From assembly GCA_937915755.1 (NCBI GenBank), contig CALGGR010000325.1, positions 6,591 through 70,590 of the forward strand: 64,000 bases of DNA, written 5' to 3'. Below are positions 21,166-47,624 of this stretch, piece by piece (positions within the stretch are counted from its first letter, which is position 1; each line of letters opens with the position of its first letter). This DNA is from an uncultured Fretibacterium sp. Its GTDB lineage: Bacteria; Synergistota; Synergistia; Synergistales; Aminobacteriaceae. The position numbers were made by a program, and so were the translations under genes. The notes beneath the pieces were generated by a model. That model saw only the letters and a list, made by a program, of their open reading frames with translations, did no database searches and was not told the origin of the DNA.

Positions 21166-21245
21166 AAATCAAAGCCCTCCTCCTGTATCTTCTGCATCTG
21201 TTGCCGTTAATACAGACGAACAAAAAGGCTTCAGAAGACCTGTCG

Positions 21246-21335: not shown

Positions 21336-21442
21336 GTCTTTCAGGTATGATTGAATGTGAACCGATAGAGAAATTATACTATAACTGTGAATTGGAAGGT
21401 AAGAAAAAACTGCCCCTGTGTGATTTCAGAGGCAGTATATTT

Positions 21443-22809: not shown

Positions 22810-22811
22810 TT

Positions 22812-24353: not shown

Positions 24354-24430
24354 TGTTTATTCTCCGTTCATGATAAAGAAAAATGCACGGAGCTTTTGAA
24401 TTTCCCCGTGCATAAAAATCTCAGAATGCT

Positions 24431-24907: not shown

Positions 24908-24997
24908 GTCTGACACCTTCCCTTCGTTAAAATTTTTTGTTAGCTGACTGATTGAAAACCGGAATTTTTTATCTCCTGTACTTCATTCCTTCTGAAA

Positions 24998-25336
24998 CTA
25001 CCCTACAAGCTCGTCGACTTTGGCCGTGATAGCCTCGATTGTGAGGTCATCTCCGCCTAGTCTTGCTACCTCCTGCCCCTCCTTGTAGAACAAGAAAGTG
25101 GGCTGTGCCATAACAGCAGGACGCACCATCATTGCGACCCTGCGGTTCTTCGACGTATCGACTGAGCAGAACTTGAACTTCCCCTCGTACTTGGGATTTT
25201 CAGCAAGCTCATGATACTTAGGCATCAACGCCATGCAAGGCCCGCACTTAGGCCCCCAGAAGTCAAGCACAGCAGGTACTGGGCTGTTCTTGAACTCGGC
25301 CTCGAAATTCTCCTTTGTTATTTCAACGACTGCCAA
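24998..25336 (-). CDS. trxA: Thioredoxin
   Basis: The active site is WGPKCGPC. I chose the TTG at 25336 (GAGGTG 6 nt upstream), which gives 112 aa. The track ATG at 25384 would add a non-conserved 16-aa leader. Confidence 0.75.
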   Translation of the reverse strand: MAVVEITKENFEAEFKNSPVPAVLDFWGPKCGPCMALMPKYHELAENPKYEGKFKFCSVDTSKNRRVAMMVRPAVMAQPTFLFYKEGQEVARLGGDDLTIEAITAKVDELVG

Positions 25337-25564
25337 CGTAATCACCTCGAATTTCACTTGGGAATTTAGGCTAATTTTCGTCAAAAAATCCCTTTATGTC
25401 AACACTAAAAATAATTATGGAACTTATAACATTTTTCACTATTGAATTTATATTTTACTTGCAAGAAAATTTCACAAGCTGAATTGATTGAAACTTACTC
25501 GGAAATTTATTATCGGACTGACTTCATATTGTCATCAAAAAAATCAAAGGATGTGAAGTTCAGT

Positions 25565-26875: not shown

Positions 26876-26897
26876 TACGAAGGGGGGAAAAGTAAAA

Positions 26898-28211
26898 ATG
26901 AAAGCAATACATTACATCAACCAGTTCTTCGCTGGAATCGGCGGAGAAGAAATGGCCGACCAGACACCCGTATTCCATGACAAGCTCATCGGCTGTTCAA
27001 TGATGCTCAATGCCATATGCAAGCCTGACATCGAGGTAACGAATACGATCGTATGCGGTGATAACTACATCACTAACCATACTGAGGAAGCGCTGAAAGA
27101 GATTTTCGCGTTCCTTGACGCAAAGGAGTTCGGAATTTTCTTCGCAGGGCCTGCGTTCATGGCTGGGCGTTACGGAGTAGGTTGCGGAATAGTATGCAAG
27201 GCTGTAAACGAGAGGTATCATGTGCCCGTAATCACCTCAATGAATGAGGAGAATCCCGGCGTTGAGGAGTACAAGTCAGCAATGTATATCTTCAAGGGCG
27301 GACGAAAGGCCACATTCATGAAGCAGGACGTTACGCCTATGGCGGCATTCGCAAAGAAGATCGCTAAGGGTGAGGAATTACTGCCTGCGGCACAGGAAGG
27401 TTACTTCCCGAGAGGAATACGTGCGGAGATTCCGCAGCCTGACGGAATAATCGCTGCTGACCGTGTCATCGACATGCTTCTGAAGAAGTTAAACGGTGAA
27501 CCTTTCCAGACTGAATTAGTCATTCCCAGCATGGAAAAGATTCCGCCTGCTGCCCCCGTCGCAGATCTAAGCAAAGCAACGATTGCCCTCGTTTCCTCAA
27601 GCGGAGTCGTCCCTGTGGATAACCCTGACAGGATTCAGAGTGCAAGCGCGCAGAAGTGGGGAAAGTACGACATCTCAAAGCTGGACAATCTTCCTGAGGG
27701 CGTATTCAAGACGATACACGCAGGATTTGACCCGGCTGCAATGTGCGCTGTCCCCGACAGAGGTATTCCGCTCGATGCTATGCGTTACTTCGAGAAGCAG
27801 GGCAAGATCGGGAAGGTCTACGATTACTTCTATGTTACGGTAGGAACTGGAACTACTCAGGCATTCGCCGCGAAGTTCGGCCGCGAAATAGCACAGGAGC
27901 TTCACGCTGCAAATGTTGACGCAGTAATACTCACATCAACCTGAGGAACTTGTACGCGTTGCGGTGCAACGATGGCAAAGGAAATCGAGCGAAGTGGTAT
28001 TCCTGTAACAGTAATGTGCAACCTCATCGACGTTGCAAAGACAGTCGGAGCCAACCGAATGGTTCAGACAGTGTCAGTTCCTTACCCGCTGGGAGATCCC
28101 GAACTCAGCAAAGAAGCAGAGTGGCAGTTACGAACAAGCCGTGTCGGCGCAGCACTTGACGCACTGGCAACAGAAGTAACAGAGCCAAAGGTATTCCCGT
28201 CGAAGTTCTAA
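26898..28211 (+). CDS. Second protein-B selenoprotein (GrdB/GrdF/GrdH family), with in-frame TGA = Sec at 27942..27944; inferred betaine-type (GrdH-like)
   Basis: Track ORFs 26898..27944 and 27972..28211 are in one frame. Joined, they read ...AVILTST-U-GTCTRCGATMAKEIE.... GGGGGAA lies upstream of the ATG. Confidence 0.85.
27942..27971 (+). promoter_or_regulatory. Sec UGA plus candidate SECIS hairpin
   Basis: The sequence is UGA GGAACUUGUACG followed by CGUUGC-GGU-GCAACG (27957..27971). Confidence 0.6.
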
Positions 28212-28224
28212 GTCATAAATCATG

Positions 28225-28256
28225 CTGGAGGTTGAAATTCGCCTCCGGCATTTTTT
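28225..28256 (+). terminator. Rho-independent terminator or attenuator between the protein-B pair and the BCCT gene
   Basis: The stem CTGGAGG / CCTCCGG has a 10-nt loop and is followed by CATTTTTTG. Confidence 0.55.
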
Positions 28257-29809: not shown

Positions 29810-29851
29810 CATGATATTATAGGCAAAATCTTTCGCGGGAGTGTGTTTTTA

Positions 29852-31246
29852 ATGTCAGACAGCAGGCAGAGGCTCAGTGAGATTCCGGGAATGGACATAA
29901 TCCTTAATTACGATTGGGTTCAGTCTTGGATTGATAAACTCGGGCGCATAAGAGTTAAGCATGTCATCAACAGTGAGCTTTCTGTGATTCGCAGGAGCAT
30001 CATTGAAGATAAGAGCGCGGAATTTTCACACGCTTCGTTCAAGTCATCGTGCTTGAGTGCGCTGGCCTTTGCCTCACATTCCGGCCTGAGACACGTCATC
30101 AATGCTTCCGGCGTTGTCATTCACACGAATCTGGGACGCTCATTGATAGCACCTGAAGCGGTCAAAGAAATGTCGGCTATCGCAGCTCACTACTCTAATC
30201 TCGAATATGACCTCAAAGCAGGCTCAAGGGGTCAGAGAAATTCGCACATTGAGGAAATCCTCTGCACGCTTACGGGCGCGGAGTCTTCCCTCGTCGTCAA
30301 CAACAACGCGGGGGCGGTTATGCTCGCTTTGAGTGCGCTTGCTAAGGGGCGTGAAGTCATCGTTTCGAGGGGCGAGCTTGTGGAAATCGGAGGCTCATTC
30401 AGGATCCCCGACATCATGGAGCTTTCAGGGGCGAAACTCGTCGAAGTCGGCACAACAAACCGCACTCATCTCCACGACTATGAACGCGCAATCACGGAGA
30501 ACACATCAATGTTGCTTAAGGTTCACCCGTCGAATTTCCGCATTGAGGGCTTCACGGCTTCACCAGAACGAAAGGAGTTAGCCCGCCTCGCTCATGAGCA
30601 TGGACTAATCTTCATGGAGGACGCGGGAAGCGGTCTCATGGTGGACGGAGACGAAATTAACCTTCCGGCGAACACAAACGAGATAAGCATAAAGTCATGT
30701 CTCGATTGTGGTGCTGACGTTGTAACATTTTCGGGTGACAAAATTCTCGGCGGGCCACAAATCGGCGGGATAGTCGGGCGGAGGGAATTTGTCGACAAGC
30801 TAAAGCGTTACCCTATGGCTAGGGCATTGCGCGTTGATAAGGTTACTATTGCGGGGTTCGAGGCAACTTTACGGCTCTACGCTCAAGGGCTTTACGATGA
30901 AATTCCAACCTTGCGAATGCTCAGGCTTGATGACGAGACCATGAGGAAACGTGCTGAGGCTCTCGCTGAAAAACTTTCTCAGACACTCACGGCTGAAGTA
31001 CATTGCATCGAGGTTGAGGACGCTACAGGCGGCGGCTCATGTCCTGAGATAATGCTGAAGGGCTGGGGAGTTTCCGTGAAGCATAACGTCATGAGTGCCG
31101 GGCACATTCAGAAATTGCTGCGTTTTGTTGACGTTCCAATTCTCTGCGGCGCGAAAGATGACGAGATCGTTATACACGTCAGGACACTTCAGGAAGGTGA
31201 AGACGAAATTGTTGCTGATGCTCTGGCGGGTGTTATGAATGTCTGA
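29852..31246 (+). CDS. selA: L-seryl-tRNA(Sec) selenium transferase SelA
   Basis: The N-terminus is RQRLSEIPGMDIILN and the PLP-lysine context is FSGDKILGGPQ. I preferred the ATG at 29852 over the track GTG at 29843. Confidence 0.85.
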   Translation: MSDSRQRLSEIPGMDIILNYDWVQSWIDKLGRIRVKHVINSELSVIRRSIIEDKSAEFSHASFKSSCLSALAFASHSGLRHVINASGVVIHTNLGRSLIAPEAVKEMSAIAAHYSNLEYDLKAGSRGQRNSHIEEILCTLTGAESSLVVNNNAGAVMLALSALAKGREVIVSRGELVEIGGSFRIPDIMELSGAKLVEVGTTNRTHLHDYERAITENTSMLLKVHPSNFRIEGFTASPERKELARLAHEHGLIFMEDAGSGLMVDGDEINLPANTNEISIKSCLDCGADVVTFSGDKILGGPQIGGIVGRREFVDKLKRYPMARALRVDKVTIAGFEATLRLYAQGLYDEIPTLRMLRLDDETMRKRAEALAEKLSQTLTAEVHCIEVEDATGGGSCPEIMLKGWGVSVKHNVMSAGHIQKLLRFVDVPILCGAKDDEIVIHVRTLQEGEDEIVADALAGVMNV

Positions 31247-33104
31247 AATATCGCTAGTCTTAGGCACAGCCGGACACATAGATCACGGAAAGACAGCCCT
31301 CATCAACGCATTGACAGGCGTAAACTGCGACCGTCTAATCGAGGAGAAACGTCGCGGAATAACCATAGAGCTTGGATTTGCCCCTCTGAAACTTGATGAC
31401 GGCCGTGTTGTCAGCGTTATAGATGTTCCTGGACACGAGAAGTTTATCCGCCAAATGGTTGCTGGAGCGTCTGGGATTGATGCCGCGCTTCTAGTTGTGG
31501 CCGCTGACGAAAGCATTATGCCCCAGACACGCGAACACCTTGCGATTATGGAGCTTTTGGGAGTACATGACGGCCTCGTAGCTGTAACGAAAATCGACAG
31601 GGTCAAAGACGAAGAAGGAATGCTCGAACTTGTCATTGATGATGTCAGGGAGTTCACGCGGGGAACGTTCCTTGAGGGCAAAGCGATAGTTCCAGTGTCA
31701 AGCATAACGGGTGAAAATCTCGGCGAACTTCGCAGAGAGATTACAGCGTTGGTTGACAGAGTCAAAATCAGGCCGAGAAGCGGGGCATTCTTCCTTCCCG
31801 TTGACAGGGCATTCGTGATTTCAGGCTTCGGGACTGTCGTAACGGGAACGGCTTATCATGGAACAATTCAGACCGGCGACAGGGTTGAGATTTTACCTTC
31901 TGGACGCGAGGGAAGAATAAGGACTCTTCAGGTTCACGGGCAGAGCGTTGAAAGCGCGTACGCTGGTCAGAGAGTCGCGTCGAACTTGGCAGGAATTGAC
32001 ATCGACGAAATTTCACGCGGCGATGTAGTTTGCCACAAAGGAGTCTTCAAGGCAACTAAATGTTTCGAGGCTGTGATACGCTTAATCGCCAACGAGCCTC
32101 TCAAGCATTGGCAGCGAGTACATGTTTGCACCGGGACTTCAGAAGTCCTCGCGCGTGTCTCACTCTTGGACTCGAAGCAGATTGAACCGGGACAGGATTC
32201 GCCAGCTCAGTTAGTGCTTGAAGAACCCGTAGTGTGTACGTTCGGGCAGAGATTCATTCTGCGTTTCTACAGCCCACTAATCACGATTGGCGGAGGAGAA
32301 GTGATTTATCCTTACTCCTACAAACCCAGAGGATCAGGCCCAAGAGCGAAGATAATTTCACGAATTGAGCATCTAAGGGAAGCCAAGACACCCGAATCAC
32401 GCTTTGAGTACCTCATAAATGAAGCAGGAAGAATCAGCAAAGCCGAATCGTTACAGCTCATACAGGATACGCAGAAGAACATCGACGCAATAATCGAACG
32501 CCTCACGAACGCCGGAAAAATCTTCGCGCTCGATAATGATTACGTCTCAAGGAAGCATTGTGATGAACTCGTCAACGCTCTCACTGAAACCGTGAGGGAC
32601 TACCAGACTCATTACTCCTCAGAAGCAGGAATGCCCGTCGAAAGTCTCAACACTTCGCGCTCGCTGCTAAATCTTGCAGTAAGCTCCGGCCTTCTTGTTA
32701 TGGAGAGCAACAAAGTACACACGCCTGATTTTGTACCGGAAAATGATGAAGCCTTCAACGCCGGCAAGCAGCACATAAAGGATATATGTATGTCCCACAA
32801 GTGGCAGTTAATCACTCTCGACGAACTCAAAAGGGAGGCAGCACTCCCGGAAAAAGTTTTCAGCAAAGTAATTCAGGGCATGAGGAACGCCGGAGAACTT
32901 GCGCTGATTCCTGAGGGCTTCGTCCTTCTCTCTGAACTTGAAGGGGAAATGCTAGAAATCCTCAAGGGCTTGGGCGAAAAGGTAACTCTTGCTCAGGTCA
33001 GAGACGCTACAGGAAGCACACGGAAATTCATTCTGCCAATACTTGAATATTTCGACAGCAAGGGCTACACAAGGAGGGCGGGTGATTATCGTGTCGTGCT
33101 GTAA
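31239..33104 (+). CDS. selB: Selenocysteine-specific elongation factor SelB
   Basis: The G-domain has GTAGHIDHGKT, DVPGHEKF and TKID motifs. A long C-terminal winged-helix extension is present. It overlaps the selA stop by 8 nt. Confidence 0.9.
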   Translation: MSEISLVLGTAGHIDHGKTALINALTGVNCDRLIEEKRRGITIELGFAPLKLDDGRVVSVIDVPGHEKFIRQMVAGASGIDAALLVVAADESIMPQTREHLAIMELLGVHDGLVAVTKIDRVKDEEGMLELVIDDVREFTRGTFLEGKAIVPVSSITGENLGELRREITALVDRVKIRPRSGAFFLPVDRAFVISGFGTVVTGTAYHGTIQTGDRVEILPSGREGRIRTLQVHGQSVESAYAGQRVASNLAGIDIDEISRGDVVCHKGVFKATKCFEAVIRLIANEPLKHWQRVHVCTGTSEVLARVSLLDSKQIEPGQDSPAQLVLEEPVVCTFGQRFILRFYSPLITIGGGEVIYPYSYKPRGSGPRAKIISRIEHLREAKTPESRFEYLINEAGRISKAESLQLIQDTQKNIDAIIERLTNAGKIFALDNDYVSRKHCDELVNALTETVRDYQTHYSSEAGMPVESLNTSRSLLNLAVSSGLLVMESNKVHTPDFVPENDEAFNAGKQHIKDICMSHKWQLITLDELKREAALPEKVFSKVIQGMRNAGELALIPEGFVLLSELEGEMLEILKGLGEKVTLAQVRDATGSTRKFILPILEYFDSKGYTRRAGDYRVVL

Positions 33105-34149
33105 CGTTCAGGCCGAGAAAAAGAGGCTGACGGAACTCTCGCATTCCAGCGGGTGAGCCGCGAAAATAGGTCCGGCGGATCTAAAGGAAGTATTATCGGG
33201 AATCCCTCAGGAGTACGGCGAAAGAATCTTGTCGTCATGGAACGGAAACGAGGACGCGGCTGTCTTTGAGCTTGACGAGGAACGTTACGGGATCTTGACG
33301 GTTGACTTCATCACTCCTGTGGTCGATGACCCTTTCACGTGGGGGCAGGTTGCGGCGGCTAACTCACTTAGTGATGTATTTGCGATGGGAGGGCGGCCGA
33401 TTGTCGCGCTTAACGTCGTATGCTTTCCGACAAAGTATCTCGAACTCGATGTATTGAAGGACATTCTCGCGGGAGGCTTTGAACGTGTGAAAACTTCGGG
33501 GGCTTTTCTTGTTGGCGGACACAGCGTACAGGACGATGAACCAAAGTACGGCCTCGTGGTTTACGGCGAAGTCAGGAAGTCTCAATTATGGAGGACTACG
33601 GGGGCAATTCCCGGCGACAAGCTCATAATCACAAAGCCAATAGGTACAGGGATAGCGGTAACAGCGATAAAAGCTGACATGATAGATGACGAACGAACCC
33701 GAACTGAAGCGACGGAGAGCATGAGGAAGCTGAACATTTTAGGACTCAGCGACGAACTTCACGCCTCTGTTCACGCGGCTACGGACGTTACGGGCTTCGG
33801 ACTTTCGGGGCATCTCTCGGATATGCTGAGCGATGACATTGACTGCAACGTTTTCCTGCGCGACATACCATCAATCACGGGCGTGAAAGAGCTTGCTGAC
33901 ATGGGGCTTGTACCTGAGGGAGCATACAGGAATCAGGCAGCGTACGAGAAGTTTGCGGATTTTGAGGGCGACTTCGCACGCAGCGATGTCGATATGCTTT
34001 ACGATGCCCAGACTTCAGGGGGCTTGCTTCTTGCTGTTGAACCTGAAAGCTCAGAGGCATTGTTAAATCACGTAAGGCAAAAGGGTTTTGAACGCGCTGA
34101 AATTATAGGCGAGTTCAGACGTGGAACAAAAAGAATAAAAATCGTATAG
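33091..34149 (+). CDS. selD: Selenide, water dikinase SelD, itself a selenoprotein (in-frame TGA = Sec at 33154..33156)
   Basis: Track ORF 33229..34149 is the AIR-synthase-like body. The same frame, read upstream, gives ...KKRLTELSHSSG-U-AAKIGPADLKEVLSG..., which is the SelD glycine-rich N-terminal loop with U in place of the catalytic Cys. The start is either the GTG at 33091 or the GTG at 33082, both downstream of AAGGAGGG. Both overlap the end of selB. Confidence 0.8.
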
Positions 34150-34164: not shown

Positions 34165-35367
34165 ATGGAGAAGCACGAACTTGTAATCATCGGTGCAGGT
34201 CCTGCAGGAATGTCGGCGGCAATCTACGGAAGACGCGCGGGTCTTGACGTTCTCGTCCTTGAACGCGGGGCAACAGGCGGTCAGATTAACATCACTGACG
34301 AAATCGAGAACTATCCCGGTATCGCACACGCTACAGGCCCGGAGATCGGAGACATGCTCAAGAATCACGCGCTGAAGTTCAACACTGAGATCCGTATGAT
34401 CGACTCGAGCAAAGTTGAACTCAGGGGCGACAAGAAAATCGTCATCACCAAGAAGAAGGGTGAGACCAACGAGATAGAGGCTGAGGCAATAATCGTAGCG
34501 ACGGGCGCACACTTCCGCAGGCTAGGCTGTGAGGGCGAGGCTGAACACATCGGACAGGGCGTTAGCTTCTGTGCTGTCTGCGACGGTGCATTCTTCGAGG
34601 ACTTGGAGGTCGCTGTTGTCGGCGGAGGAAACACGGCGGTCGAGGAGGGCGGATACCTCACTAAGTTTGCGTCGAAAGTCTACATCATTCACAGGCGCGA
34701 CGAGTTCAGGGCTGACAGGGCGGCAATCGCTCAGGCACTCGCAAACCCGAAAATCGAGCCTGTCTACAACACCGTCGTAGAGAAAATCGAGGGCGACGGA
34801 ATGGTTGAGAACTTAGTCCTCAAGAACGTTAAAACCGGCGAAATCTCTAACCTTCCTGTTGCGGGAGTGTTCATGTTCGTCGGGCAAGAGCCTGATGATG
34901 ACTGCGTGAAGGGACTCGTTAAGGCGGAGCGCGGAGGCTGGATAATCACGAATGACCACATGGAGACATCGGTCGAGGGAATCTTCGCGGCCGGCGACGT
35001 TCGCAGCAAGTATCTCCGTCAGGTCATAACGGCTGCTGCTGACGGTGCTGTTGCTGCAATGGCGGCATCGTCATACATCAATGAGCAGTTACATCTGCGC
35101 TCGACGCTTCTTGAGCCTGAGGAGGTCAAGGCGTTCTTCTATTCGAGCATTGATGAGTCTCAGGTTAAGCTGTCGAATGCCGTTGAGAATTTCGCAAAGT
35201 CAAAGGGCGTTAAAGTTCCGGTGATTGACGGCTACAGGAACGCAAGAATGACCGAGAAATTGAGCCTCGCTGACAAAATGCCTGCAATCGCAACCATAAA
35301 GAAGGGCGTTGTCGACAAGGTTGTAACGGTCAAGAGTGAAGCTGATATTGAAAGCTCATTGGCATAA
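34165..35367 (+). CDS. trxB: Thioredoxin reductase with a ~95-aa C-terminal degenerate thioredoxin-fold extension
   Basis: It has the FAD motif GAGPAGMSAA, the redox CAVCDG motif, and the NADPH motif VVGGGNTAVEE. After ...ASSYINEQ comes an extra domain (KAFFYSSIDESQVKL...KMPAIATIKKGVVDKVV). That domain has Trx-like secondary-structure spacing but no CxxC. Confidence 0.8.
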   Translation: MEKHELVIIGAGPAGMSAAIYGRRAGLDVLVLERGATGGQINITDEIENYPGIAHATGPEIGDMLKNHALKFNTEIRMIDSSKVELRGDKKIVITKKKGETNEIEAEAIIVATGAHFRRLGCEGEAEHIGQGVSFCAVCDGAFFEDLEVAVVGGGNTAVEEGGYLTKFASKVYIIHRRDEFRADRAAIAQALANPKIEPVYNTVVEKIEGDGMVENLVLKNVKTGEISNLPVAGVFMFVGQEPDDDCVKGLVKAERGGWIITNDHMETSVEGIFAAGDVRSKYLRQVITAAADGAVAAMAASSYINEQLHLRSTLLEPEEVKAFFYSSIDESQVKLSNAVENFAKSKGVKVPVIDGYRNARMTEKLSLADKMPAIATIKKGVVDKVVTVKSEADIESSLA

Positions 35368-35380
35368 AATTTGGTGAAAA

Positions 35381-35412
35381 GGGGAGCTGCTTTTACGAGT
35401 TCCCCAATTTTT
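35381..35412 (+). terminator. Terminator or attenuator hairpin after trxB
   Basis: The 8-bp stem GGGGAGCT / AGTTCCCC (one G-U pair) has a 9-nt loop and is followed by AATTTTTA. Confidence 0.5.
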
Positions 35413-35418
35413 ATAGTC

Positions 35419-36420
35419 ATGGAAAATATATTATTGTTGTTTACATCGGAGCTTCCTTGCTGGGATTACGAGACCGTCAGGATAGCGGGGGAAGACCCTG
35501 AAGGATTAGAACCTCTCGTTGAAGCCGGAGACCTCGCAAAAATCGGAGGGGGCTATGTCCTCACGGCTCAGGGAGTAAGGACGCGCGAGGAGACCGCGAA
35601 GGAGCTTTATCTCCCTGTAACTCCGGCAGGCGAAATCATCACTGATGCATCGAAAGCCGCCGAACTTCTGGGCTTAAACGTCATGGCGCAGTATTTAGAC
35701 CGCGCATTTGTTACGGACTGGGGCATTAAGGAGGTAACTGTGAGTGAGATGTTCCCGATAATGCCCTGCCTCGAAGATAACGAATATTTTGCGTTTGAGG
35801 GTGAACGTGTAAAAGCAGTTTGGCCGGAACACGAGGACGTGAAGAAATTTCTTGCCGACTTCCCGAATGTAGGAGTTGCCGCAAGAAAATTCCCTGCTCC
35901 CGGACAGAAAGCTCTCGATGAATGGGCGGGAAGAAATAATCTCAGCTATGGAAGCCTCACTGTTGATTTCGTTCTGAGGAGCCGCGCGGATTTCAACCAC
36001 TACAAGAATTATGAGCAGTTGCCGTCGGACAAATTCAAATTCCTTGATGCTGATGAATTATTCGTGAAGAAGGTTTCAGGGAGGCCAGAAGAATTGTTAC
36101 CTTTCATCGGCAAACTTCATATATTCCTGATGGAACAGAGGCGAATTTTCCTCCCCGGCTGGTTCGACATCGACCACGATGAAAACGAGGACTGGCATCT
36201 TCTCGCGTTCGTTACGGACAATGAGGAGCAGCTTGAAAATCTCACAATGACTTTGAGGAAATGGGGGCATGATCTGATTGACCCTGCTAACCCTCTATTC
36301 ATACTTGGAACTAGCATAGAGAGGCTTCGCAACCAGAAAGAGCAGAAACGCAACATGTATGACTGGTTCCAAGAGGAGGCTGTTCGCATAATGAGGCCAG
36401 ACGGTGAGGACGGTGAATAG
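35419..36420 (+). CDS. Uncharacterised ~335-aa acidic protein, tandem paralogue 1 (no family recognised)
   Basis: I chose the ATG at 35419 (MENILLLFTSELPCWD) because it aligns with the N-terminus of paralogue 2. No clear RBS is visible. It is collinear with the next ORF along its whole length. Confidence 0.55.
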   Translation: MENILLLFTSELPCWDYETVRIAGEDPEGLEPLVEAGDLAKIGGGYVLTAQGVRTREETAKELYLPVTPAGEIITDASKAAELLGLNVMAQYLDRAFVTDWGIKEVTVSEMFPIMPCLEDNEYFAFEGERVKAVWPEHEDVKKFLADFPNVGVAARKFPAPGQKALDEWAGRNNLSYGSLTVDFVLRSRADFNHYKNYEQLPSDKFKFLDADELFVKKVSGRPEELLPFIGKLHIFLMEQRRIFLPGWFDIDHDENEDWHLLAFVTDNEEQLENLTMTLRKWGHDLIDPANPLFILGTSIERLRNQKEQKRNMYDWFQEEAVRIMRPDGEDGE

Positions 36421-37420
36421 CGCGGATAATACCCTCCTTCTTTTCACGCCTGAGCTTCCATGCTGGGACGCTGAGACTGTGGGGCTTGCGGGTGATGACC
36501 CGAAATCACTTGCAGAGCTTGAAGCCGCCGGAAACGTAGCGAGGCTTGGAGGAGGGTATGTTCTCACACGCAAGGGCATCCAAACACGGAAAATTGTGTC
36601 GCGCGAAAATTATGTGCCTTCAATGAAGATTGACACCCTTGTAACCGATGAGCACGAAGCCTCTCGAAGCCTTGAGTTAAACAGAATGGTTCAGCTTTTG
36701 GATCGAGCTTTCATGACCGAGTGGGGGATAAAGGAGTTCAAGATCAATGAGACTTTCCCCGTTGTCCCATGCCTTGAAGACGATGAATACTTTGCGTTTG
36801 AGGGTGAACGTGTCAAAGCGATATGGCCTGAGAATGAATACGTAAAATCCTTCATGGCTGAATTTCCCGATAACGGCTACGAAGCAAGAAAGCTGCCCGC
36901 TCCCGGCCCTGAAGCACTCTCACAATGGGCTGAAAGACATCATGCACCGCGCGGGAATTTCAAGGTCGAGTTCGTACTGAGGCATCATCACGACTTCGCG
37001 CACTACAGACAGTTGCCCACGCCGGAGGGAGACATTTTCGGTTTCGTCAACGCGGGAATAATCTTCGCACGAAAATTCAGAGGTAAGCCTGAAGAATTGC
37101 TGCCCTTCATCGGGAGAATACATGTATTCTTCACGATGCAAAGGAGGATATATATTCCGGGCTGGTTCGACATGGACAGCGAGGAGCAGGAGCCGGGAAA
37201 GATGGTAACTTTCATCACTGACACTGACGATGAACTCCGTGAACTAACGAGGACGCTCAGGCGTTGGGGGCTTTCACTGATTGAGCCGGCCTGCCCTATT
37301 TACATCATGGGTACAAGCATAGAGCATCTTCGTAATCAGGAGACAAAGAGCATGATTTACGACTGGTTTGCAGAGGAGACTGTGAAGATCTTGCGCCCCG
37401 ACTTTCAGGACGAGGAATGA
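36404..37420 (+). CDS. Uncharacterised ~338-aa acidic protein, tandem paralogue 2
   Basis: It shares these blocks with paralogue 1: LLLFT.ELPCWD, GGGYVLT, WGIKE, PCLED.EYFAFEGERVKA.WPE, PEELLPFIG, QRRI..PGWFD, GTSIE.LRNQ and YDWF.EE. Its GTG start overlaps paralogue 1 by 17 nt. Confidence 0.55.
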   Translation: MRTVNSADNTLLLFTPELPCWDAETVGLAGDDPKSLAELEAAGNVARLGGGYVLTRKGIQTRKIVSRENYVPSMKIDTLVTDEHEASRSLELNRMVQLLDRAFMTEWGIKEFKINETFPVVPCLEDDEYFAFEGERVKAIWPENEYVKSFMAEFPDNGYEARKLPAPGPEALSQWAERHHAPRGNFKVEFVLRHHHDFAHYRQLPTPEGDIFGFVNAGIIFARKFRGKPEELLPFIGRIHVFFTMQRRIYIPGWFDMDSEEQEPGKMVTFITDTDDELRELTRTLRRWGLSLIEPACPIYIMGTSIEHLRNQETKSMIYDWFAEETVKILRPDFQDEE

Positions 37421-38097
37421 TGTATTACTTCGAGAGCAAATGCACAAATCCTGAATACAATTTAGCCCTTGAGGAATATTTATGCGGTTTTGGCCGTGAG
37501 ATGTTTATGCTATGGCGTAATAAGCCGTCAGTCATCATCGGCAGGTTCGGAGTCGTCAATGATGAGGTTGATACAAAATTCGCTGAGGCTGAGGGGATTC
37601 GTATTGTCCGCAGAAACTCAGGGGGAGGAGCTGTTTATCACGACTTGGGGAACGTGAACTACAGCTTCATTCTCAGGGACAGCAAGAAATTCACGCTTGA
37701 GCATTTCGCGCGAATCATCATGAGGACACTTGAGGCTATCGGCATAAATTCACGTCTTGATTTCCGGCACAATGACATTCTTGCTGACGGTCTCAAAATT
37801 TCCGGCTCCGCGCAATATCATCATGAGGGTATAATCCTTCATCACGGCACTTTGCTCTTCGATTCTGACCTGAATATTATCCCGCGTGTTCTGAAACGTT
37901 CGGGAAACGTCGCAAACATCAGGCCGTTGCTTAAAAACGATATGAATGTTGAGAAGTTTATGAGGACTTTGGCGGACAATATTGGTGAGACGAAAAATTT
38001 TCAGCTTCCCAAAAATGAGGACGTGGAAAAATTATTGCGTCTAAAATATTCAAATCCTAAATGGAACATGGAGGGTGTAAAAATTGATAACCTTTGA
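37417..38097 (+). CDS. Lipoate-protein ligase / octanoyltransferase-family catalytic domain only (no LplA C-terminal accessory domain)
   Basis: It has NLALEEYL, RRNSGGGAVYHDLGN and the catalytic-lysine context LKISGSAQ. It is only 226 aa. An ATGA overlap couples it to the upstream gene. Confidence 0.7.
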   Translation: MMYYFESKCTNPEYNLALEEYLCGFGREMFMLWRNKPSVIIGRFGVVNDEVDTKFAEAEGIRIVRRNSGGGAVYHDLGNVNYSFILRDSKKFTLEHFARIIMRTLEAIGINSRLDFRHNDILADGLKISGSAQYHHEGIILHHGTLLFDSDLNIIPRVLKRSGNVANIRPLLKNDMNVEKFMRTLADNIGETKNFQLPKNEDVEKLLRLKYSNPKWNMEGVKIDNL

Positions 38098-38464
38098 CAA
38101 GAATGTGCGTTACACTAAATCGAATGAGTGGGCAAGAAAAATTGATGACGTTATCCGCGTCGGCATTGATGATTATTCTCAGTCATCGCTTGGTGATATT
38201 GTTCACATTGAAGTCATTGCGCCGTTGTCCAACGTAACCGCCGGAAAATCATTCGGCTCGATCGAGGCCACAAAGTCCGTATGCGACATAATTGCCCCAA
38301 TCTCAGGCATAATTCTGCGCGTCAACGATGAAGTCATCAAATCACCTCAGCTCATAAATTCAGACCCGTTCGGTCAAGGCTGGATTGCCGAAATTAAGCC
38401 CAGCGATGTATCAGAACTCGACGGTCTCATGACCTCTGAGGAATACGAGAACTTCATACGATGA
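38084..38464 (+). CDS. gcvH: Glycine-cleavage H-protein-like lipoyl carrier (orphan; no gcvT or gcvP in the window)
   Basis: The 126-aa protein has YTKSNEWAR and the lipoyl-lysine motif SIEATKSVCDIIAP. The start is TTG with GGAGGG 8 nt upstream. Confidence 0.75.
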   Translation: MITFDKNVRYTKSNEWARKIDDVIRVGIDDYSQSSLGDIVHIEVIAPLSNVTAGKSFGSIEATKSVCDIIAPISGIILRVNDEVIKSPQLINSDPFGQGWIAEIKPSDVSELDGLMTSEEYENFIR

Positions 38465-39411
38465 CCCAGCTCTCGGAACGTATCCGCAAAGTCAGGCAGT
38501 TCAAGCGCGAAATCTATCAGGAGTACGGCTTCTATTACTACGTCCCGATGGCCGAGGCTTACACTGTGCAAGTCCCCGTTACGGTGAGCTGTTCATACGG
38601 AAAATGCCTTTACTGCGACTTGAATCAGGGAATGACCTTCCGCGAACTCAGCCTCAAAGAGATTGAAGCGAACATTGAGAAACTGCGCTATATTAACGAT
38701 AAACCGTCAAAACGTTTCCTTCTCGCGGGCGGTAATCCGTTCGTATTAAGTGCTGAAAAATTACTGAGAATATCCGAGATGATTCATGCTCACTTCCCGG
38801 AGTGCGAATATATTTCCGCGTTCTCAAGAGCCGATGACATAACACGCAAAAGCCCCGACGATTTGAGAATGCTTCATGAGGCCGGCTATGACAGATTATG
38901 TATAGGGATTGAGAGCGGCTGTGATGATGTCCTGAAGTTCCACGAAAAGGGCGTAACACGTTCCCAGAACCTTGAGGCTATGAAGATGCTTGACGATGCG
39001 GGGATAAAATACTCAACATACATAATGCTTGGACTTGGAGGACGCTCAATGTCGGAGGCTCACGTCAAAGATACCGCCTCACTCCTGAATAACGCCAATC
39101 CTTTCGAGCTTACCGTTGTAACTCTAGTACTTTTCAAGGGCGCGAGGCTCATAGAGAAGGTGAGGTCTCATGAATTTTTGCGAATGTCCCCCTTCGACGC
39201 GCTGAAAGAAGAACGCGAACTCCTCTCATTACTCACTATCAACACGGTATTCAACGCAACTCACAAGACAAATCTTTTCCCCATCAAGGGCAGAATACCA
39301 GAACATAAGAACATACTGATAAAGAAAATCGACAATGCCGTTAATGAAATCTCGGAGGCCGGATTAAAGCAATATGAGCTTAAACGATGGCACAAATGGG
39401 GAATAGAGTAG
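38461..39411 (+). CDS. Radical SAM-like protein with non-canonical CX4CX2C cluster motif, function unknown
   Basis: VSCSYGKCLYCDL occurs at about residue 45, and LLAGGNPF is a GGE-like SAM motif. It has a TIM-barrel-like length. An ATGA overlap couples it to gcvH. Confidence 0.55.
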   Translation: MTQLSERIRKVRQFKREIYQEYGFYYYVPMAEAYTVQVPVTVSCSYGKCLYCDLNQGMTFRELSLKEIEANIEKLRYINDKPSKRFLLAGGNPFVLSAEKLLRISEMIHAHFPECEYISAFSRADDITRKSPDDLRMLHEAGYDRLCIGIESGCDDVLKFHEKGVTRSQNLEAMKMLDDAGIKYSTYIMLGLGGRSMSEAHVKDTASLLNNANPFELTVVTLVLFKGARLIEKVRSHEFLRMSPFDALKEERELLSLLTINTVFNATHKTNLFPIKGRIPEHKNILIKKIDNAVNEISEAGLKQYELKRWHKWGIE

Positions 39412-42895: not shown

Positions 42896-42935
42896 CAGGG
42901 CAGGGGGAGAAAGTTCTTTCTGTCCTGTTTCTGTT
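42896..42935 (+). terminator. Terminator-like hairpin
   Basis: CAGGGCAG (42896-42903) pairs with CTGTCCTG (42920-42927) with one mismatch, followed by TTTCTGTT. Confidence 0.4.
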
Positions 42936-42950
42936 ACAGGAGCAATGAAA

Positions 42951-44096
42951 ATGCTATCACTACCCAAGAATTTTGAGAGCTTCAACGATGCCCGCAAAAA
43001 ATCATTCATGGCACTCTATGAGGCTAAACAGGCCGGGAAGAAAGTTGTCGGCACATTCTGCTCATATACTCCGGTCGAACTTATCAACGCCGCCGGAGCA
43101 ATCTCGGTCGGACTTTGCGGGAAATCCGAGCAGGGAATAGCCGAAGCTGAGACGCGGCTTCCGAAAACTCTCTGCCCTTTAATCAAAGCAAGCTACGGAA
43201 TGGCGATGACTGACCAATGCCCATACTTCTATTTCTCTGACGGAATTTTAGCCGAGACGACCTGCGACGGTAAGAAGAAGATGTATGAGCTTATGAGCCT
43301 CTTGAAGCCCGTACATGTAATGAACTTGCCGCAGGGAAGAGATCAGGCAATGGCCATCGAATCGTGGACTGAGGAAGTTAAACGCGCCGCGAAGTTCCTT
43401 GAGGGACTGTTCAATGTAACGATAACTGAGGACAAACTTCATGACGCTATCGTTTACCGCAACAAAGTACGCAAAGCCATCGTTGATTTGTACGAGGTGG
43501 CAAAGATGAAACCGTCTCCAGTCTCAGGCTACGAGATAAGCACGGTTGCTGAGAGCGCGGATTTCCACTTCACCGACGATGACCTTGTGGCTAAAATCGA
43601 GAGGACTACGCGCGAGTTCAAGGAACGTATACGCAATGACGGAGAAGGAAGGCCGAGAGTCCTCATAACAGGCTGCCCGAATGCAGGAGTGCGCGACAAA
43701 ATCATCAAGCGTCTTGAGGAACTTGGAGCTGATTATGTCTGTGCTGACAACTGCGCCGGGCCGAGAACACAGAAGTTTATGGTCGACGAAAATTCAGACC
43801 CTTACAGGGCAATCGCTGAACGTTATCTCAAAATCAACTGTTCCGTTATGACCCCGAATACTGCGCGCTTTGATGACATCAAGGCACTTATTGACGAGTA
43901 TCAGGCTGACGGTGTAATAGAGATAGTTCTTCACGGCTGCCACACATTCGCGGTTGAAGCATACACGACGATGAACATTGTGCAGAACGATCTCGGTATG
44001 CCTTACATGAGGCTTGATACGGATTTTTCGCAGTCTGACAAAGGACAGATAGAAACAAGGCTCGGAGCATTCATTGAAATGATGACTGCGGCCTGA
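42951..44096 (+). CDS. Double-cubane-cluster / 2-hydroxyacyl-CoA dehydratase-family reductase subunit, paralogue 1
   Basis: The motif run is KKVVGTFCSYTPVE...LPKTLCPLIKASYG...QCPYFYFSDGILAETTCDGKKKM. I preferred the ATG at 42951 (GGAG 8 nt upstream) over 42945. Confidence 0.65.
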   Translation: MLSLPKNFESFNDARKKSFMALYEAKQAGKKVVGTFCSYTPVELINAAGAISVGLCGKSEQGIAEAETRLPKTLCPLIKASYGMAMTDQCPYFYFSDGILAETTCDGKKKMYELMSLLKPVHVMNLPQGRDQAMAIESWTEEVKRAAKFLEGLFNVTITEDKLHDAIVYRNKVRKAIVDLYEVAKMKPSPVSGYEISTVAESADFHFTDDDLVAKIERTTREFKERIRNDGEGRPRVLITGCPNAGVRDKIIKRLEELGADYVCADNCAGPRTQKFMVDENSDPYRAIAERYLKINCSVMTPNTARFDDIKALIDEYQADGVIEIVLHGCHTFAVEAYTTMNIVQNDLGMPYMRLDTDFSQSDKGQIETRLGAFIEMMTAA

Positions 44097-44121
44097 GAAT
44101 AATTTACAGGAGGTTTTAAGA

Positions 44122-44703
44122 ATGGTAAAAGTTGATGCAATGGGCAAACTTTGCCCCGAACCAGTCATAATGACAAAGGCAGAAGTCGAGAAGGGCGCGG
44201 ACGAAATCGAGGTACTCGTCGACAACGATATAGCAGTCTCGAATGTAACACGTCTCCTTGAAGGTAAGGGCTTCAGCGTTGAGCTTTCAAGGTCAGGAAA
44301 CGAACGCAAACTCACGGCCAAGAAGACAGCTTCAGGTTCAGCACCTGCTGCGTCGTCAAAGCGTGATGAACTTCTCGCAATCCTCGTTGCCCATGATGTT
44401 CTCGGCGGTAACGACAAGGAACTCGGCGAAGTCCTCATGAAAGCGTTTCTAGGCTGCATCTCGAAACTTTCACGCCGCCCCGCTGTTATGGCGTTCATGA
44501 ATGAGGGCGTGAAGCTGGTACTGCCTGAGTCGTCAGCCTGCGATTACATCAAGGAGCTTGAGAAGGCCGGAACAAAGATTCTCGTCTGCGGAACATGCAC
44601 AACGCATTTCAACATCACTGACAAAATCGCGGTCGGTACGATTTCCAACATGTTCGAGATTATGGAGATGATTACCGGCGCGGACAATACGCTGATATTC
44701 TAA
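44122..44703 (+). CDS. yedF: YedF-type selenium-metabolism protein (TusA/SirA N-domain fused to a DsrE-like C-domain)
   Basis: The N-terminus is VDAMGKLCPEPVIMTKAEV (CPxP). The C-terminal half has DKELGEVLMKAF...VCGTC. It is about 193 aa, matching the two-domain YedF architecture. Confidence 0.65.
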   Translation: MVKVDAMGKLCPEPVIMTKAEVEKGADEIEVLVDNDIAVSNVTRLLEGKGFSVELSRSGNERKLTAKKTASGSAPAASSKRDELLAILVAHDVLGGNDKELGEVLMKAFLGCISKLSRRPAVMAFMNEGVKLVLPESSACDYIKELEKAGTKILVCGTCTTHFNITDKIAVGTISNMFEIMEMITGADNTLIF

Positions 44704-45459
44704 ATGCTTTACGCGGGTATAGACATCGGTTCAACGGCGGCTAAAGCTGTATTGATGAATGAAAACAGAGACGAGATTCTCGGGCGTAAACTGATGCCCT
44801 CAGGCTGGAACAGCAGGGAGACGGCTCAGGAAATGCTTGAATGGCTCTTGTCTCTGGGACATTCACGCGATGACATCAAAATTATTGCGACTGGTTACGG
44901 GCGTATATCGGTGCCTTACGCTGACAGCACATTAACTGAGATTACATGTCATGGAAAGGGCGCGGCATTTCTTGGCGGTGAAAATCTCACGGTCATAGAC
45001 ATTGGAGGTCAGGACACGAAGGTAATAATTCTGAGGAACGGGCGGGTTATTGACTTCGTTATGAATGATAAATGCTCGGCTGGAACTGGGAAATTCCTTG
45101 AGGTCATGGCCAACCGAATGGGATTGACGCTTCCTGAATTTTTCGGGCTTGCTGAAAACGGAAAGGACATCAAAATTTCGTCGATGTGTACGGTCTTTGC
45201 TGAGAGCGAAATTGTCAGCCTCATGGGACTTGGAACTCCGCGCGAGGATATAGCCTGCGGAGCTGTCGGTTCAGTTGTGTCGAAGGTTGCGACTTTAGTC
45301 AGCCGTAAAAATCCATCGGGCGGTTACTTTTTGACGGGCGGATTTTGTGAAAGCACCCTTTTGATTCGTAAGCTGTCGGAAACTTTAGGCTCTGAAGTCA
45401 GGACGAGTCCTGATGCGCGTTTTGCAGGAGCGATAGGGGCGGCGTTGCTGGGCAAATGA
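44704..45459 (+). CDS. Acyl-CoA dehydratase/benzoyl-CoA reductase-type ATP-dependent activase (BcrAD/BadFG/HgdC family)
   Basis: It has the ASKHA-fold motifs GIDIGSTAAKAVL and IDIGGQDTK. The bridging-cluster Cys context is NDKCSAGTGKFLE ... MCTVFAESE. Confidence 0.8.
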   Translation: MLYAGIDIGSTAAKAVLMNENRDEILGRKLMPSGWNSRETAQEMLEWLLSLGHSRDDIKIIATGYGRISVPYADSTLTEITCHGKGAAFLGGENLTVIDIGGQDTKVIILRNGRVIDFVMNDKCSAGTGKFLEVMANRMGLTLPEFFGLAENGKDIKISSMCTVFAESEIVSLMGLGTPREDIACGAVGSVVSKVATLVSRKNPSGGYFLTGGFCESTLLIRKLSETLGSEVRTSPDARFAGAIGAALLGK

Positions 45460-46088
45460 TTCTTTATGAGCTAGAGAATCTCCGGCGAATGGCATATGTC
45501 AGGGCTGTTATGAGTGATTACGTCGTGGGCTACATCGGAATGAAGATACCCATCGAGATATTTCATGCGCTTGGGCTTATGGCTGTTCCTGTTTACGGTA
45601 TCGACAGGGAAATCCTGAAGTTTTCACGCGAGGAGAAGCTATGCCCTTTGGTTGATGCAACGATAACCTATGCGAAGACGGATAAATGCCCGCTCATTCA
45701 CAGCGCAAAGATGATTGTGATTGATGATACATGCGATTTGATGAGGGGAAAAATGTCCGGGCTTCAGGGGAAATGCATTCACTTTTACGACAACGACCGT
45801 GAAAATTTGATTGCGGTTATCGAAGAAGTTTACGGCAGAAAGTTTCAGGCTGAAAATCTGAGTTCTGTTCAGAAAGAGCTTGAACGTATACACAGCCGCG
45901 TAAAGTCATTGACGAATGACGAGGTTCAGAGCTTCATTCTTGAATATTACGTCAACTTTCTGGACTTGCCTGAACGCATGAATTTCCTTGACACTTTGCA
46001 GGGTAAAGAAATTCGTTTGTCTCATGAGTTCGTCGAGACTATTTATCGTTGTCCCGAATGCGGGGGCAAATTTTTGAGGGAGGGATAG
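45456..46088 (+). CDS. Truncated dehydratase/double-cubane-family paralogue with a C-terminal CPECGG knuckle
   Basis: The 210-aa protein keeps VVGYIGMKIPIEIFHALG...LCPLVDATITYAKTDKCPLI...IDDTCD. It lacks the C-terminal half of the family. Confidence 0.5.
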   Translation: MILYELENLRRMAYVRAVMSDYVVGYIGMKIPIEIFHALGLMAVPVYGIDREILKFSREEKLCPLVDATITYAKTDKCPLIHSAKMIVIDDTCDLMRGKMSGLQGKCIHFYDNDRENLIAVIEEVYGRKFQAENLSSVQKELERIHSRVKSLTNDEVQSFILEYYVNFLDLPERMNFLDTLQGKEIRLSHEFVETIYRCPECGGKFLREG

Positions 46089-46092
46089 ATTT

Positions 46093-47370
46093 ATGGCAGA
46101 TTATCACGAAATGTGGGAAGCTCTTGGAATGGACGTTAAAACACACGACCTTCTATGTGAGGCACTTCCCGGAGCGTTCGGAGATGTTTACTTGTCGCAG
46201 GAGAACAGGCCGGAAGGTATGGACTACTTCAACATGGTGGTCGCTGAAATTCACGGCATAAGGCCCGCTGAACTCGTCGAGCATAAGAAGAAAGGCGGAA
46301 AGGTCGTCGGGACATTCTGCATTCATGTACCCGATGAAATTCCGATTTCGGCAGGAGCTATTGCTACGGGGTTATGCTCAGGGTCTCAGTTCTGGGTTCC
46401 GGGAGGCGAAAAGAAGTTACCCGCCGCAACTTGTCCGCTGATTAAGGCGAGTTTGGGCGCGAGGTTTGACAGGACATGCCCGTTCTTCAGGCTCGCGGAT
46501 TTGTTCGTCGGTGAGACCACGTGCGACGGTAAGAAAAAGGCTTGGGAAATTCTCGCTGAGGACGCGCCAATGTACATCATGGACATTCCGCAGATGAAAA
46601 GGCCGAAAGACTATGAGCATTGGAACGAGGAAATTCACGGCTATCTGAAGAAGTGTGAGGAGCTTACAGGCAACGAGGTAACTCCCGCAAGCCTAAGAAG
46701 CGCGATTATTCTCCTCAACAAGAAGCGCAAGGCTCTCCATAGGCTCGCAAGTTTCCGAAAACTCGACAACATTCCCATAAGCGGGAAAGATGTTCTTCTC
46801 ATCACGCAGATAGCATTCTACGATGACCCCGCAAGAATCACAGCGCAAATCAACAAGCTCTGCGATGAACTTGACGAACGCGCAAAGAATAATGTCTCAG
46901 TCTTCCCGAAAGGAACAAAGAGGATTTTGCTGACTGGTACACCGCTTTCAATCCCGAACTGGAAACTTCACCACATCATTGAAACTCTCGGCGGTGCTGT
47001 GGTATGCGAGGAGATGTGCACGGGAATACGTTATTACGAGAAGTGCGTCGACGAATCAGGCTCGACGATTGACGAGATGATTACGCATTTGACTGAGCGT
47101 TACATGGGAGCGATTCACTGTGCTTGCTTCACGCCGAACTCAGAGCGGATCGACGACATCAAACGTCTGGCTAAAGAGTACAAGGCTGACGGAGTTATTG
47201 ACGTGAACCTGAAGTTCTGCAACATCTATGACACTGAGGGCTACTTCGTCGAACGTGAGCTGAATAACGCGGGTATTCCCGTTCTCGGAATAGAGACCGA
47301 CTACACGGATCAGGACGCTGAACAGCTCAAGACCCGAATCGGCGCGTTCTTGGAGATGCTGGGGAATTGA
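46093..47370 (+). CDS. Double-cubane-cluster / 2-hydroxyacyl-CoA dehydratase-family reductase subunit, paralogue 2
   Basis: The motif run is GKVVGTFCIHVPDE...LPAATCPLIKASLG...TCPFFRLADLFVGETTCDGKKKA...CEEMCTG...HCACF. Confidence 0.65.
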   Translation: MADYHEMWEALGMDVKTHDLLCEALPGAFGDVYLSQENRPEGMDYFNMVVAEIHGIRPAELVEHKKKGGKVVGTFCIHVPDEIPISAGAIATGLCSGSQFWVPGGEKKLPAATCPLIKASLGARFDRTCPFFRLADLFVGETTCDGKKKAWEILAEDAPMYIMDIPQMKRPKDYEHWNEEIHGYLKKCEELTGNEVTPASLRSAIILLNKKRKALHRLASFRKLDNIPISGKDVLLITQIAFYDDPARITAQINKLCDELDERAKNNVSVFPKGTKRILLTGTPLSIPNWKLHHIIETLGGAVVCEEMCTGIRYYEKCVDESGSTIDEMITHLTERYMGAIHCACFTPNSERIDDIKRLAKEYKADGVIDVNLKFCNIYDTEGYFVERELNNAGIPVLGIETDYTDQDAEQLKTRIGAFLEMLGN

Positions 47371-47624
47371 GCGCGAGGCATTACGTTTTATTTCCCGACG
47401 TAACGAACGCACAGAGGCTCTATGACATTCTCAAGGCTGGGGGCATAAAATGCACATTCGCTCCCACGCCTAGAGAGGCCGACAAATGTTGCGGGGTCTG
47501 TGTTCTCTTTCAAGATGGCAACGACAGAGAGGCAATCGAAAAATTCATCTCTGAGAACGGAATAAATATCTTGAGATTTTACGACGGAGAATCAGGCGAC
47601 CCCCAAAGAATGAAATTTTGCTGA
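47367..47624 (+). CDS. DUF3343 (putative Se/S carrier-like) protein, second copy
   Basis: The 85-aa protein reads HYVLFPDVTNAQRLYDILKAGGIKCTFAPTPREADKCCGVCVLF. Its TTG start overlaps the upstream stop (TTGA). Confidence 0.55.
   Translation: MSARHYVLFPDVTNAQRLYDILKAGGIKCTFAPTPREADKCCGVCVLFQDGNDREAIEKFISENGINILRFYDGESGDPQRMKFC

Follow-up and report, generated by a model that had tools for sequence, protein, structure and literature searches.

A conserved Synergistaceae cassette of a short lipoate ligase-type gene, gcvH and a CX4CX2C radical SAM gene behind thioredoxin reductase in an uncultured Fretibacterium sp.

Described lipoyl systems and the Fretibacterium locus

LplA2 and GcvH-L of Staphylococcus and Streptococcus form a dedicated pair of a lipoate ligase and an H-protein-like carrier. 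Ligase homologues encoded beside their own GcvH-type carrier are also known from sulfur oxidisers (sLpl(AB)-LbpA; PMC6067878, PMC10332631) and from Thermacetogenium phaeum (lplA-gcvH2/gcvH3; PMC12674515). A similar arrangement is present in 64,000 nucleotides (nt) of an uncultured Fretibacterium sp. (GenBank assembly GCA_937915755.1, contig CALGGR010000325.1, positions 6,591 to 70,590), the whole of which is referred to below as the window. Homologues of its genes likewise assign the organism to the Synergistaceae, near Fretibacterium. Here, a short ligase-type gene (lplA'), gcvH and a radical S-adenosylmethionine gene (radical SAM; rSAM), together called the trio, follow a long thioredoxin reductase gene (trxB) and two genes of a protein family that we call unk. 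Like the described pairs, this cassette lies outside a gcvTHP operon and within an operon for another redox process. It differs from sLpl(AB)-LbpA and similar pairs in that the ligase is without the accessory domain and its carrier, unlike the divergent LbpA and GcvH-L, is a canonical GcvH. Its partners also differ, being a Synergistaceae unk protein and an rSAM protein that is not BioB-like, in a context of thioredoxin, Grd-type reductases and selenium. We conclude that a ligase lacking the accessory domain, a lineage-specific unk protein and a CX4CX2C rSAM gene coupled to gcvH constitute a conserved cassette of the Synergistaceae, and that this combination is new.

Individual members of the cassette resemble components of other systems. 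The LplA-LplB system of Thermoplasma acidophilum and the LipM/LipL acyltransferases have, like LplA', a catalytic domain without a fused accessory domain. Unlike Thermoplasma, neither the open reading frames (ORFs) of the cassette nor the window hold an lplB gene, a PF10437 domain or another LplB-like domain, and LplA' is closest to the bacterial TIGR00545 ligases. LipA and LipS1/LipS2 are, like the window protein, radical SAM proteins encoded beside a lipoate ligase and a lipoyl carrier. The window protein differs from LipA in lacking the auxiliary-cluster cysteines (CX4CX5C), the RSSY motif and significant sequence similarity (BLASTP against E. coli LipA, E = 0.84), and its own cluster motif is CX4CX2C. 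LipS1 and LipS2 are a BioB-related pair that usually occurs with a two-domain or an LplA+LplB ligase (PMC10332631), whereas the window has a single rSAM gene and no LplB; this separation rests on the published descriptions of LipS1/LipS2. No Synergistaceae or Fretibacterium entries are present in the supplementary tables of the same study (PMC10332631). The best sequence and fold matches of the window protein are OxsB, MgmA and Elp3, with which it has a GIESGS-type motif in common; it is without the cobalamin-binding domain of OxsB and MgmA and without the acetyltransferase domain of Elp3.

The surroundings of the cassette recall Eubacterium acidaminophilum (PMC4056300), likewise an anaerobe with several Grd-type selenoprotein reductases and with TrxB and TrxA encoded together with grd genes. 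This organism is without Lpd, and its glycine decarboxylase is thought to be linked to glycine reductase via the thioredoxin system (PMC4056300, citing Meyer et al. 1991). The electron path proposed for it, from the lipoyl-H protein to thioredoxin and on to Grd, is the same as that considered here. Its gcvH is located in a gcv operon with the genes for the P and T proteins and PrpU, whereas gcvH of the window comes after trxB, in the company of ligase and rSAM genes. The window shows no P, T or PrpU gene, and its TrxB has an extra C-terminal domain.

Proteins of the cassette

The trio genes are all on the plus strand and are chained to one another and to the upstream gene unk2. lplA' (37417-38097, 226 aa) joins unk2 at an ATGA, gcvH (38084-38464, 126 aa) overlaps lplA' by 14 nt, and the rSAM gene (38461-39411, 316 aa) has its start overlapping the gcvH stop, again as ATGA. 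gcvH has a TTG start, 8 nt upstream of which is the ribosome-binding site GGAGGG. These ORFs and overlaps agree with an earlier sequence-only reading of the window, and the motifs it listed (GGGAVYHDLGN, LKISGSAQ, EATKSVCD and CSYGKCLYC) were all found in window ORFs. The trio forms the 3' end of a gap-free string on one strand, selA-selB-selD(Sec)-trxB(long)-unk1-unk2-lplA'-gcvH-rSAM.

Judged from its sequence, GcvH is a canonical-type H protein of the glycine cleavage system. It passes the NF002270 model (139 bits; cutoff 117 bits), matches PF01597 with 123 bits, scores slightly below the cutoff of TIGR00527 (113.6 vs 115.85 bits) and shares 41% identity with E. coli GcvH. Its lipoyl-lysine motif, EATKSV, contains the expected E-x-x-K. 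Searches with E. coli GcvT, GcvP, Lpd, LipA and LipB (tblastn, E<=1e-3) returned no match, either in the window or across 120 related loci. The window thus lacks gcvT, gcvP and lpd, as had been noted, and the earlier description of this GcvH as an orphan holds within these 64 kb.

LplA' matched a single domain, the catalytic domain PF21948 (167 bits). Among the ligase models, TIGR00545 scored highest, covering model positions 1-240 of 328 with 203 bits, below its cutoff of 280 bits; LplA_large followed with 88 bits, and two models for GcvH-dependent amidotransferases (LipL-type) scored about 20 bits each. The protein is 35% identical to E. coli LplA in an alignment with E. coli residues 9-160 and keeps the lipoyl-AMP-binding motifs of a ligase catalytic domain, SGGGAV(Y/F)HDLGN and K(I/V)SGSA (the K133 equivalent). 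The absence of the C-terminal accessory domain, claimed previously, is evident from the end of the protein at 226 aa, the partial TIGR00545 match and a tblastn search with the E. coli LplA C-domain (residues 245-338), which found no match in the window. Since more than 100 Synergistaceae homologues are uniformly short (about 176-239 aa), the shortness of the ligase is a family trait and not a frameshift artefact. Classical lipoate ligases consist of a catalytic and an accessory domain, the latter being required (PMC6067878). Because they need this domain for lipoyl-AMP, LplA' would either use a partner in trans or act as an acyl-transferase.

The unk protein is possibly the trans partner of LplA', a candidacy for which there is no structural support. 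The window encodes two tandem paralogues of this 349/338-aa family, unk1 (35371-36420, plus strand) and unk2 (36404-37420, plus strand, 338 aa), which share 54% identity. All 105 homologues collected belong to Synergistaceae, Fretibacterium or Pyramidobacter, and a profile search of 1.84 billion proteins recovered only 86 representative clusters. An AF2 model (pLDDT 73.5) has an N-terminal region of ~70 aa weakly similar to MarR/IclR winged helices. Assignment of unk as an LplB substitute or as a known enzyme was dropped, given the small number of clusters, the lack of a Pfam or NCBIfam match and a Foldseek search against PDB with nothing below E = 0.1. Wherever upstream DNA is visible, unk is directly upstream of lplA', with a gap of -20 to +48 nt.

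The rSAM protein has the features of the radical SAM superfamily, namely a cysteine triad, a PF04055 match (74.6 bits, its only Pfam match) and a radical SAM barrel in an AF2 model with pLDDT 92. In an alignment of 25 proteins with 47-91% identity to the window protein, only C44, C49 and C52 are invariant, and the N-terminal auxiliary-cluster motif of LipA is missing, as the sequence-only reading had stated. The three cluster cysteines being the only invariant ones, the protein would have no auxiliary Fe-S cluster to serve as sulfur donor. The sulfur-inserting radical SAM enzymes characterised so far (LipA, BioB, LipS1/2 and MiaB/RimO) all use a second Fe-S cluster.

The CX4CX2C spacing was present in all 102 homologues examined, a count that is partly biased since part of this set was ascertained by the motif itself; some of these proteins have four cysteines in total. 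The spacing had been remarked upon as a departure from CX3CX2C. It is such a departure, and yet it is not peculiar to this protein, for it is normal among the nearest relatives. A search of PDB with the family profile gave only two kinds of match below E = 0.01, OxsB (1.3e-9) and archaeal Elp3 (9e-7), and both have the same spacing (CDYSRCTFC and CPHGKCIFC, respectively). The motif of OxsB is documented (PMC9204698), and RadicalSAM.org contains a CX4CX2C megacluster (PMC9477430); the idea of a unique oddity was accordingly ruled out.

The highest NCBIfam scores of the rSAM protein were about 40 bits (top score 42), to the cores of PhpK, HemZ, BchE and HemW. Placement relative to LipA and BioB by profile models, proposed earlier as a check, gave a match to neither: the LipA model is absent from the 23 NCBIfam matches at E<=0.01, no BioB-family model is matched, and HydE is matched weakly (23 bits). 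No FarC-named model occurs among these NCBIfam matches either, a comparison made by model names alone (FarC is an rSAM protein of the Cloacibacillus fluoroacetate reductase operon; PMC10838667). Foldseek placed MgmA, Elp3 and AprD4 first, with OxsB also found, at TM-scores of 0.5-0.6; LipA appeared at rank 12 (3.5e-8) amid many generic radical SAM barrels. The OxsB and MgmA matches span only the radical SAM cores of those proteins. No cobalamin-binding domain is present in the window protein (316 aa, core from residue ~35, no B12-binding Pfam match), nor an Elp3 acetyltransferase domain (TIGR01211, 24 bits vs a cutoff of 350 bits), and for these reasons it belongs neither to class B nor to the Elp3 family. 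A LipA-, LipS- or BioB-like identity was rejected from the profile scans, pairwise BLAST and cysteine conservation. By these sequence comparisons, the protein appears to represent an uncharacterised single-[4Fe-4S] family related to Elp3 and to the cores of cobalamin-type radical SAM enzymes.

Distribution and surroundings of the cassette

At least five genomic contexts contain the order unk-lplA'-gcvH-rSAM. The gcvH-rSAM pair follows trxB-unk-lplA', as in the window, in three loci (L012, L020 and L023) and grdA-grdC-grdD-unk-lplA' in two (L010 and L032). In L004 the pair occurs without lplA, and in L021 and L026 it is parted from lplA by insertions of 0.9 kb and 7 kb. Among loci whose rSAM protein is 65-74% identical to that of the window, gcvH is directly upstream in all but one (L062, 65%), and the gcvH/rSAM junction is ATGA or 0 nt in 16 of 16 paired loci. 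The arrangement is that of two sub-modules, unk-lplA' and gcvH-rSAM, usually found together. In a neighbour-joining tree (computed without branch support), the paired loci comprise one whole Synergistaceae clade and a subclade of its sister, which suggests that the pairing is old with later losses or was gained twice independently. In our view, the pairing reflects genuine selection in this lineage for expressing GcvH and the rSAM protein together.

More distant homologues of the rSAM protein are solitary, at ~50% identity in Tissierella and Tissierellaceae and at 57-61% in other Synergistaceae. A metagenome scan found lplA-gcvH upstream in one of 80 rSAM loci (L041, 65% identity). The genes next to solitary members (DegV, EpsG, HAD, ArsA and others) show no shared theme.

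Two of the rearranged loci carry further genes of note. The region between lplA and gcvH-rSAM in L021, a Fretibacterium metagenome-assembled genome (MAG), encodes a coiled-coil ORF and an ankyrin-repeat ORF (11673-12502), and as a source of lplB this insertion was ruled out. Ankyrin repeats are unusual in bacteria. In the Synergistaceae lineage without lplA at the locus, a 515-aa protein is encoded upstream of gcvH-rSAM (L004/L005, 7806-9353); it has no Pfam match, and a relationship to unk was ruled out.

Upstream of unk1 is the long trxB (34165-35367, plus strand, 400 aa; TIGR01292, 355 bits vs a cutoff of 343 bits). Residues 1-306 correspond to a normal low-Mr thioredoxin reductase with a CAVC motif, and matches to thioredoxin reductases in PDB stop at residue ~306. 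The remaining ~95 aa (residues ~307-400) are without a CxxC motif and have no match in Pfam or in PDB sequences. Across 16 of the examined Synergistaceae loci, identity of the long TrxB is 80-94%, a conservation above that of all neighbouring genes. In 26 loci from GTDB genomes, unk follows either the long TrxB gene or a betaine grdIH-BCCT operon, whether the trio is present or not; the unk1-type in particular keeps this position in relatives, behind the long trxB or the operon for betaine reductase and BCCT, even where lplA-gcvH-rSAM is absent.

The string begins with selA (29843-31246), selB (31239-33104) and selD (33106-34149; TIGR00476, 300 bits), all on the plus strand. selD contains an in-frame TGA at 33154-33156 (translation ...HSSG-U-AAKIGP...), and a mechanical ORF list begins the gene only at 33229. 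Between selD and trxB the gap is 16 nt. In some relatives a ~260-aa gene of the alpha-acetolactate decarboxylase family lies between selD and the long trxB (PF03306 in L012; L012/L013, 5837-6616; also in L015, L019, L033 and L035), and it is not present in the window.

This string sits inside a Synergistaceae island for selenium and glycine/betaine reductase. Further upstream are the grd genes (18394-28211), with two sets of B components, one of the glycine/sarcosine type after a glycine riboswitch and one of the betaine type with a BCCT transporter, as well as grdC/D and grdX. The proximity of the trio to trxB and glycine reductase, pointed out in the sequence-only reading, is therefore real. 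Within the grd block is trxA (24998-25384, minus strand), a clostridial-type thioredoxin gene whose best match is NF047697 (102 bits, cutoff 140); TrxA is likely the redox partner of TrxB and Grd. A tRNA-Sec (16553-16646, plus strand) and YedE (16926-17999, minus strand) are also upstream, together with two SECIS_4 elements and the glycine riboswitch (18356-18393 and 21241-21340, minus strand; 27945-27982, plus strand). The SECIS_4 elements are in grdB-type genes, with an STUG read-through codon at 27942-27944. Taken together, these features amount to a complete selenocysteine machinery, accompanied by two substrate-specific Grd sets. No riboswitch or other RNA element was found in front of the trio, the sole glycine riboswitch preceding grdX, and a promoter and terminator scan gave no signal above shuffle expectation. 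Strong terminators were located at 28222-28251 and 42896-42927, both outside the selA-to-rSAM string.

Downstream of the trio are an ABC transporter, a CMD-family protein, a TehA-like channel and a group of genes at 42945-47624 that may form a reductase set handling selenium or sulfur. This group, all on the plus strand, consists of two double-cubane-cluster reductases (42945-44096 and 46093-47370), YedF (44122-44703), a BcrAD/BadFG activator (44704-45459), a truncated third HGD-D-like ORF (45456-46088) and a Se_S_carrier/DUF3343 protein (47367-47624). The group and the trio are also syntenic in L012, L017, L020 and L023.

Proposed role of the cassette and alternatives

We tentatively propose, as an account that is quite possible, that lplA' and gcvH form a charging pair, that the lipoyl-H protein is linked to TrxB, thioredoxin and Grd, and that the rSAM protein, without inserting sulfur, probably acts on or with GcvH. 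LplA' would load lipoate or octanoate onto the lysine of the co-encoded GcvH as a dedicated enzyme-substrate pair. By analogy with E. acidaminophilum, lipoyl-GcvH would most likely function in glycine oxidation, the P and T proteins for which would be encoded elsewhere. Its re-oxidation would fall to the long TrxB and TrxA, and from this thioredoxin system electrons would reach the selenoprotein reductases of the Grd type. Expression of grd alongside the glycine cleavage system has been observed in a Synergistaceae MAG (PMC7024554). An H protein acting as a redox shuttle into TrxB-Trx-Grd is plausible on this analogy, and is consistent with the cassette's position, since here and at several other loci the trio comes after the long trxB, and elsewhere after grdA-grdC-grdD. 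The rSAM gene would have become translationally coupled to gcvH in this Synergistaceae lineage, and its product may, at low confidence, perform 5'-deoxyadenosyl-radical C-H chemistry rather than sulfur insertion on or with GcvH or its acyl-lysine arm. It is unlikely that matters go further, with an acyl- or lipoyl-lysine arm altered by the rSAM protein, on GcvH charged by LplA' and unk, wiring the long TrxB to Grd or, as a selenium carrier, to SelD. Such an arm would be a variant cofactor of the lipoyl type, and GcvH would have a role without earlier description.

Several observations weigh against the proposed account. The link to glycine cleavage is an assumption, as gcvT and gcvP are in neither the window nor the related loci. 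No accessory domain for LplA' was found in the cassette or the window, and the unk model gave no Foldseek match resembling the LplA C-domain. Some loci have the trio at a distance from grd and trx genes (L014, L018 and L017; likewise the pair in L004), and the long trxB and unk are found without the trio in L033, L035 and L038, so that none of the links among trxB, unk and the trio is obligatory. Finally, the rSAM homologues of 61% identity or less, which include the 79 unpaired loci of the metagenome scan and those of Tissierella, have no GcvH or LplA neighbour, which implies that the core function of the family needs no adjacent GcvH.

This last point is central to a somewhat doubtful but serious alternative, in which only lplA' and gcvH are a functional pair and the rSAM protein is a housekeeping modifier of RNA or a cofactor, of the Elp3/MnmL type or the cobalamin-rSAM type, unrelated to GcvH. 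The family occurs widely, and in Tissierellia, other Synergistaceae and human-gut taxa its genes stand alone; the solitary members have no common neighbourhood, and the substrates of its relatives by sequence and fold are RNA, small molecules or proteins and not lipoyl domains. Such a modifier would not be expected to keep the tight junction with gcvH seen in every paired locus at 65-74% rSAM identity, nor to stay with gcvH through several relocations and through insertions that split off lplA, and the tree, which was built without branch support, points either to an ancient pairing lost in places or to one gained twice. A lipoylation route of the LipM/LipA kind, in which LplA' octanoylates GcvH and the rSAM protein inserts both sulfurs, was raised by the sequence-only reading, and we consider it quite improbable. 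The combination of a transferase, an H protein and an rSAM protein does mirror the LipM-GcvH-LipA scheme of Bacillus, lipA was not found in the window and LipA is listed by Foldseek. However, a protein without conserved cysteines beyond the SAM cluster offers no sulfur-donor cluster, its sequence has no significant similarity to E. coli LipA and matches no LipA or BioB model (HydE reaching only 23 bits), it is encoded by one gene rather than as a LipS1/S2-like pair (PMC10332631), and most of its family have no lipoyl-protein neighbour. On sequence grounds, a new lipoate synthase is very unlikely.

The selenium genes around the cassette raise the thought that lipoyl-GcvH could also, or instead, be a selenium carrier, its dithiol holding a selenotrisulfide from which the long TrxB frees selenide for Sec-SelD. 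Lipoic-acid selenotrisulfides are reportedly reduced by thioredoxin reductase (Self, Tsai and Stadtman, PNAS 2000). Selenite reduction by the thioredoxin system for selenoprotein synthesis is documented (PMC8538045) and counts in its favour, as do tRNA-Sec and YedE nearby and the position of the trio, in the window and syntenic relatives, between selA-selB-selD-trxB and the YedF, Se_S_carrier and double-cubane reductase genes. We nevertheless regard a carrier of this kind as highly improbable: the trio is also found in loci without sel genes (L014, L018 and L004), the GcvH sequence is canonical, and the adjacency of sel and grd genes is already explained by the Grd proteins being selenoproteins. 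Least probable of all, and in our estimate barely credible, is that unk and LplA' form a split BirA-like sensor of lipoate or lipoyl-AMP that regulates grd and trx genes instead of a biosynthetic ligase. BirA combines a winged helix-turn-helix with the same BPL_LplA_LipB fold, and the weak MarR/IclR resemblance of the unk N-terminus and the constant translational coupling of unk and lplA' fit such a sensor. The Foldseek probabilities are low, though, with no E-value below 0.1; unk is mostly found without lplA', and LplA' retains all ligase catalytic motifs and adjoins an obvious substrate in GcvH.

If the proposed charging pair and redox link are correct, Synergistaceae of the rumen, gut and digesters encode a dedicated module for charging an H protein directly behind thioredoxin reductase. 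This would provide a genetic handle on the old biochemical idea of a coupling between glycine oxidation and Stickland-type reductases by way of lipoyl-H protein and thioredoxin. The cassette should not carry an annotation as a lipoyl synthase system. It exposes as targets an LplA catalytic domain without its accessory domain and a lineage-specific partner without a fold match, and it makes GcvH a concrete candidate substrate for a widespread single-cluster family of CX4CX2C radical SAM proteins.

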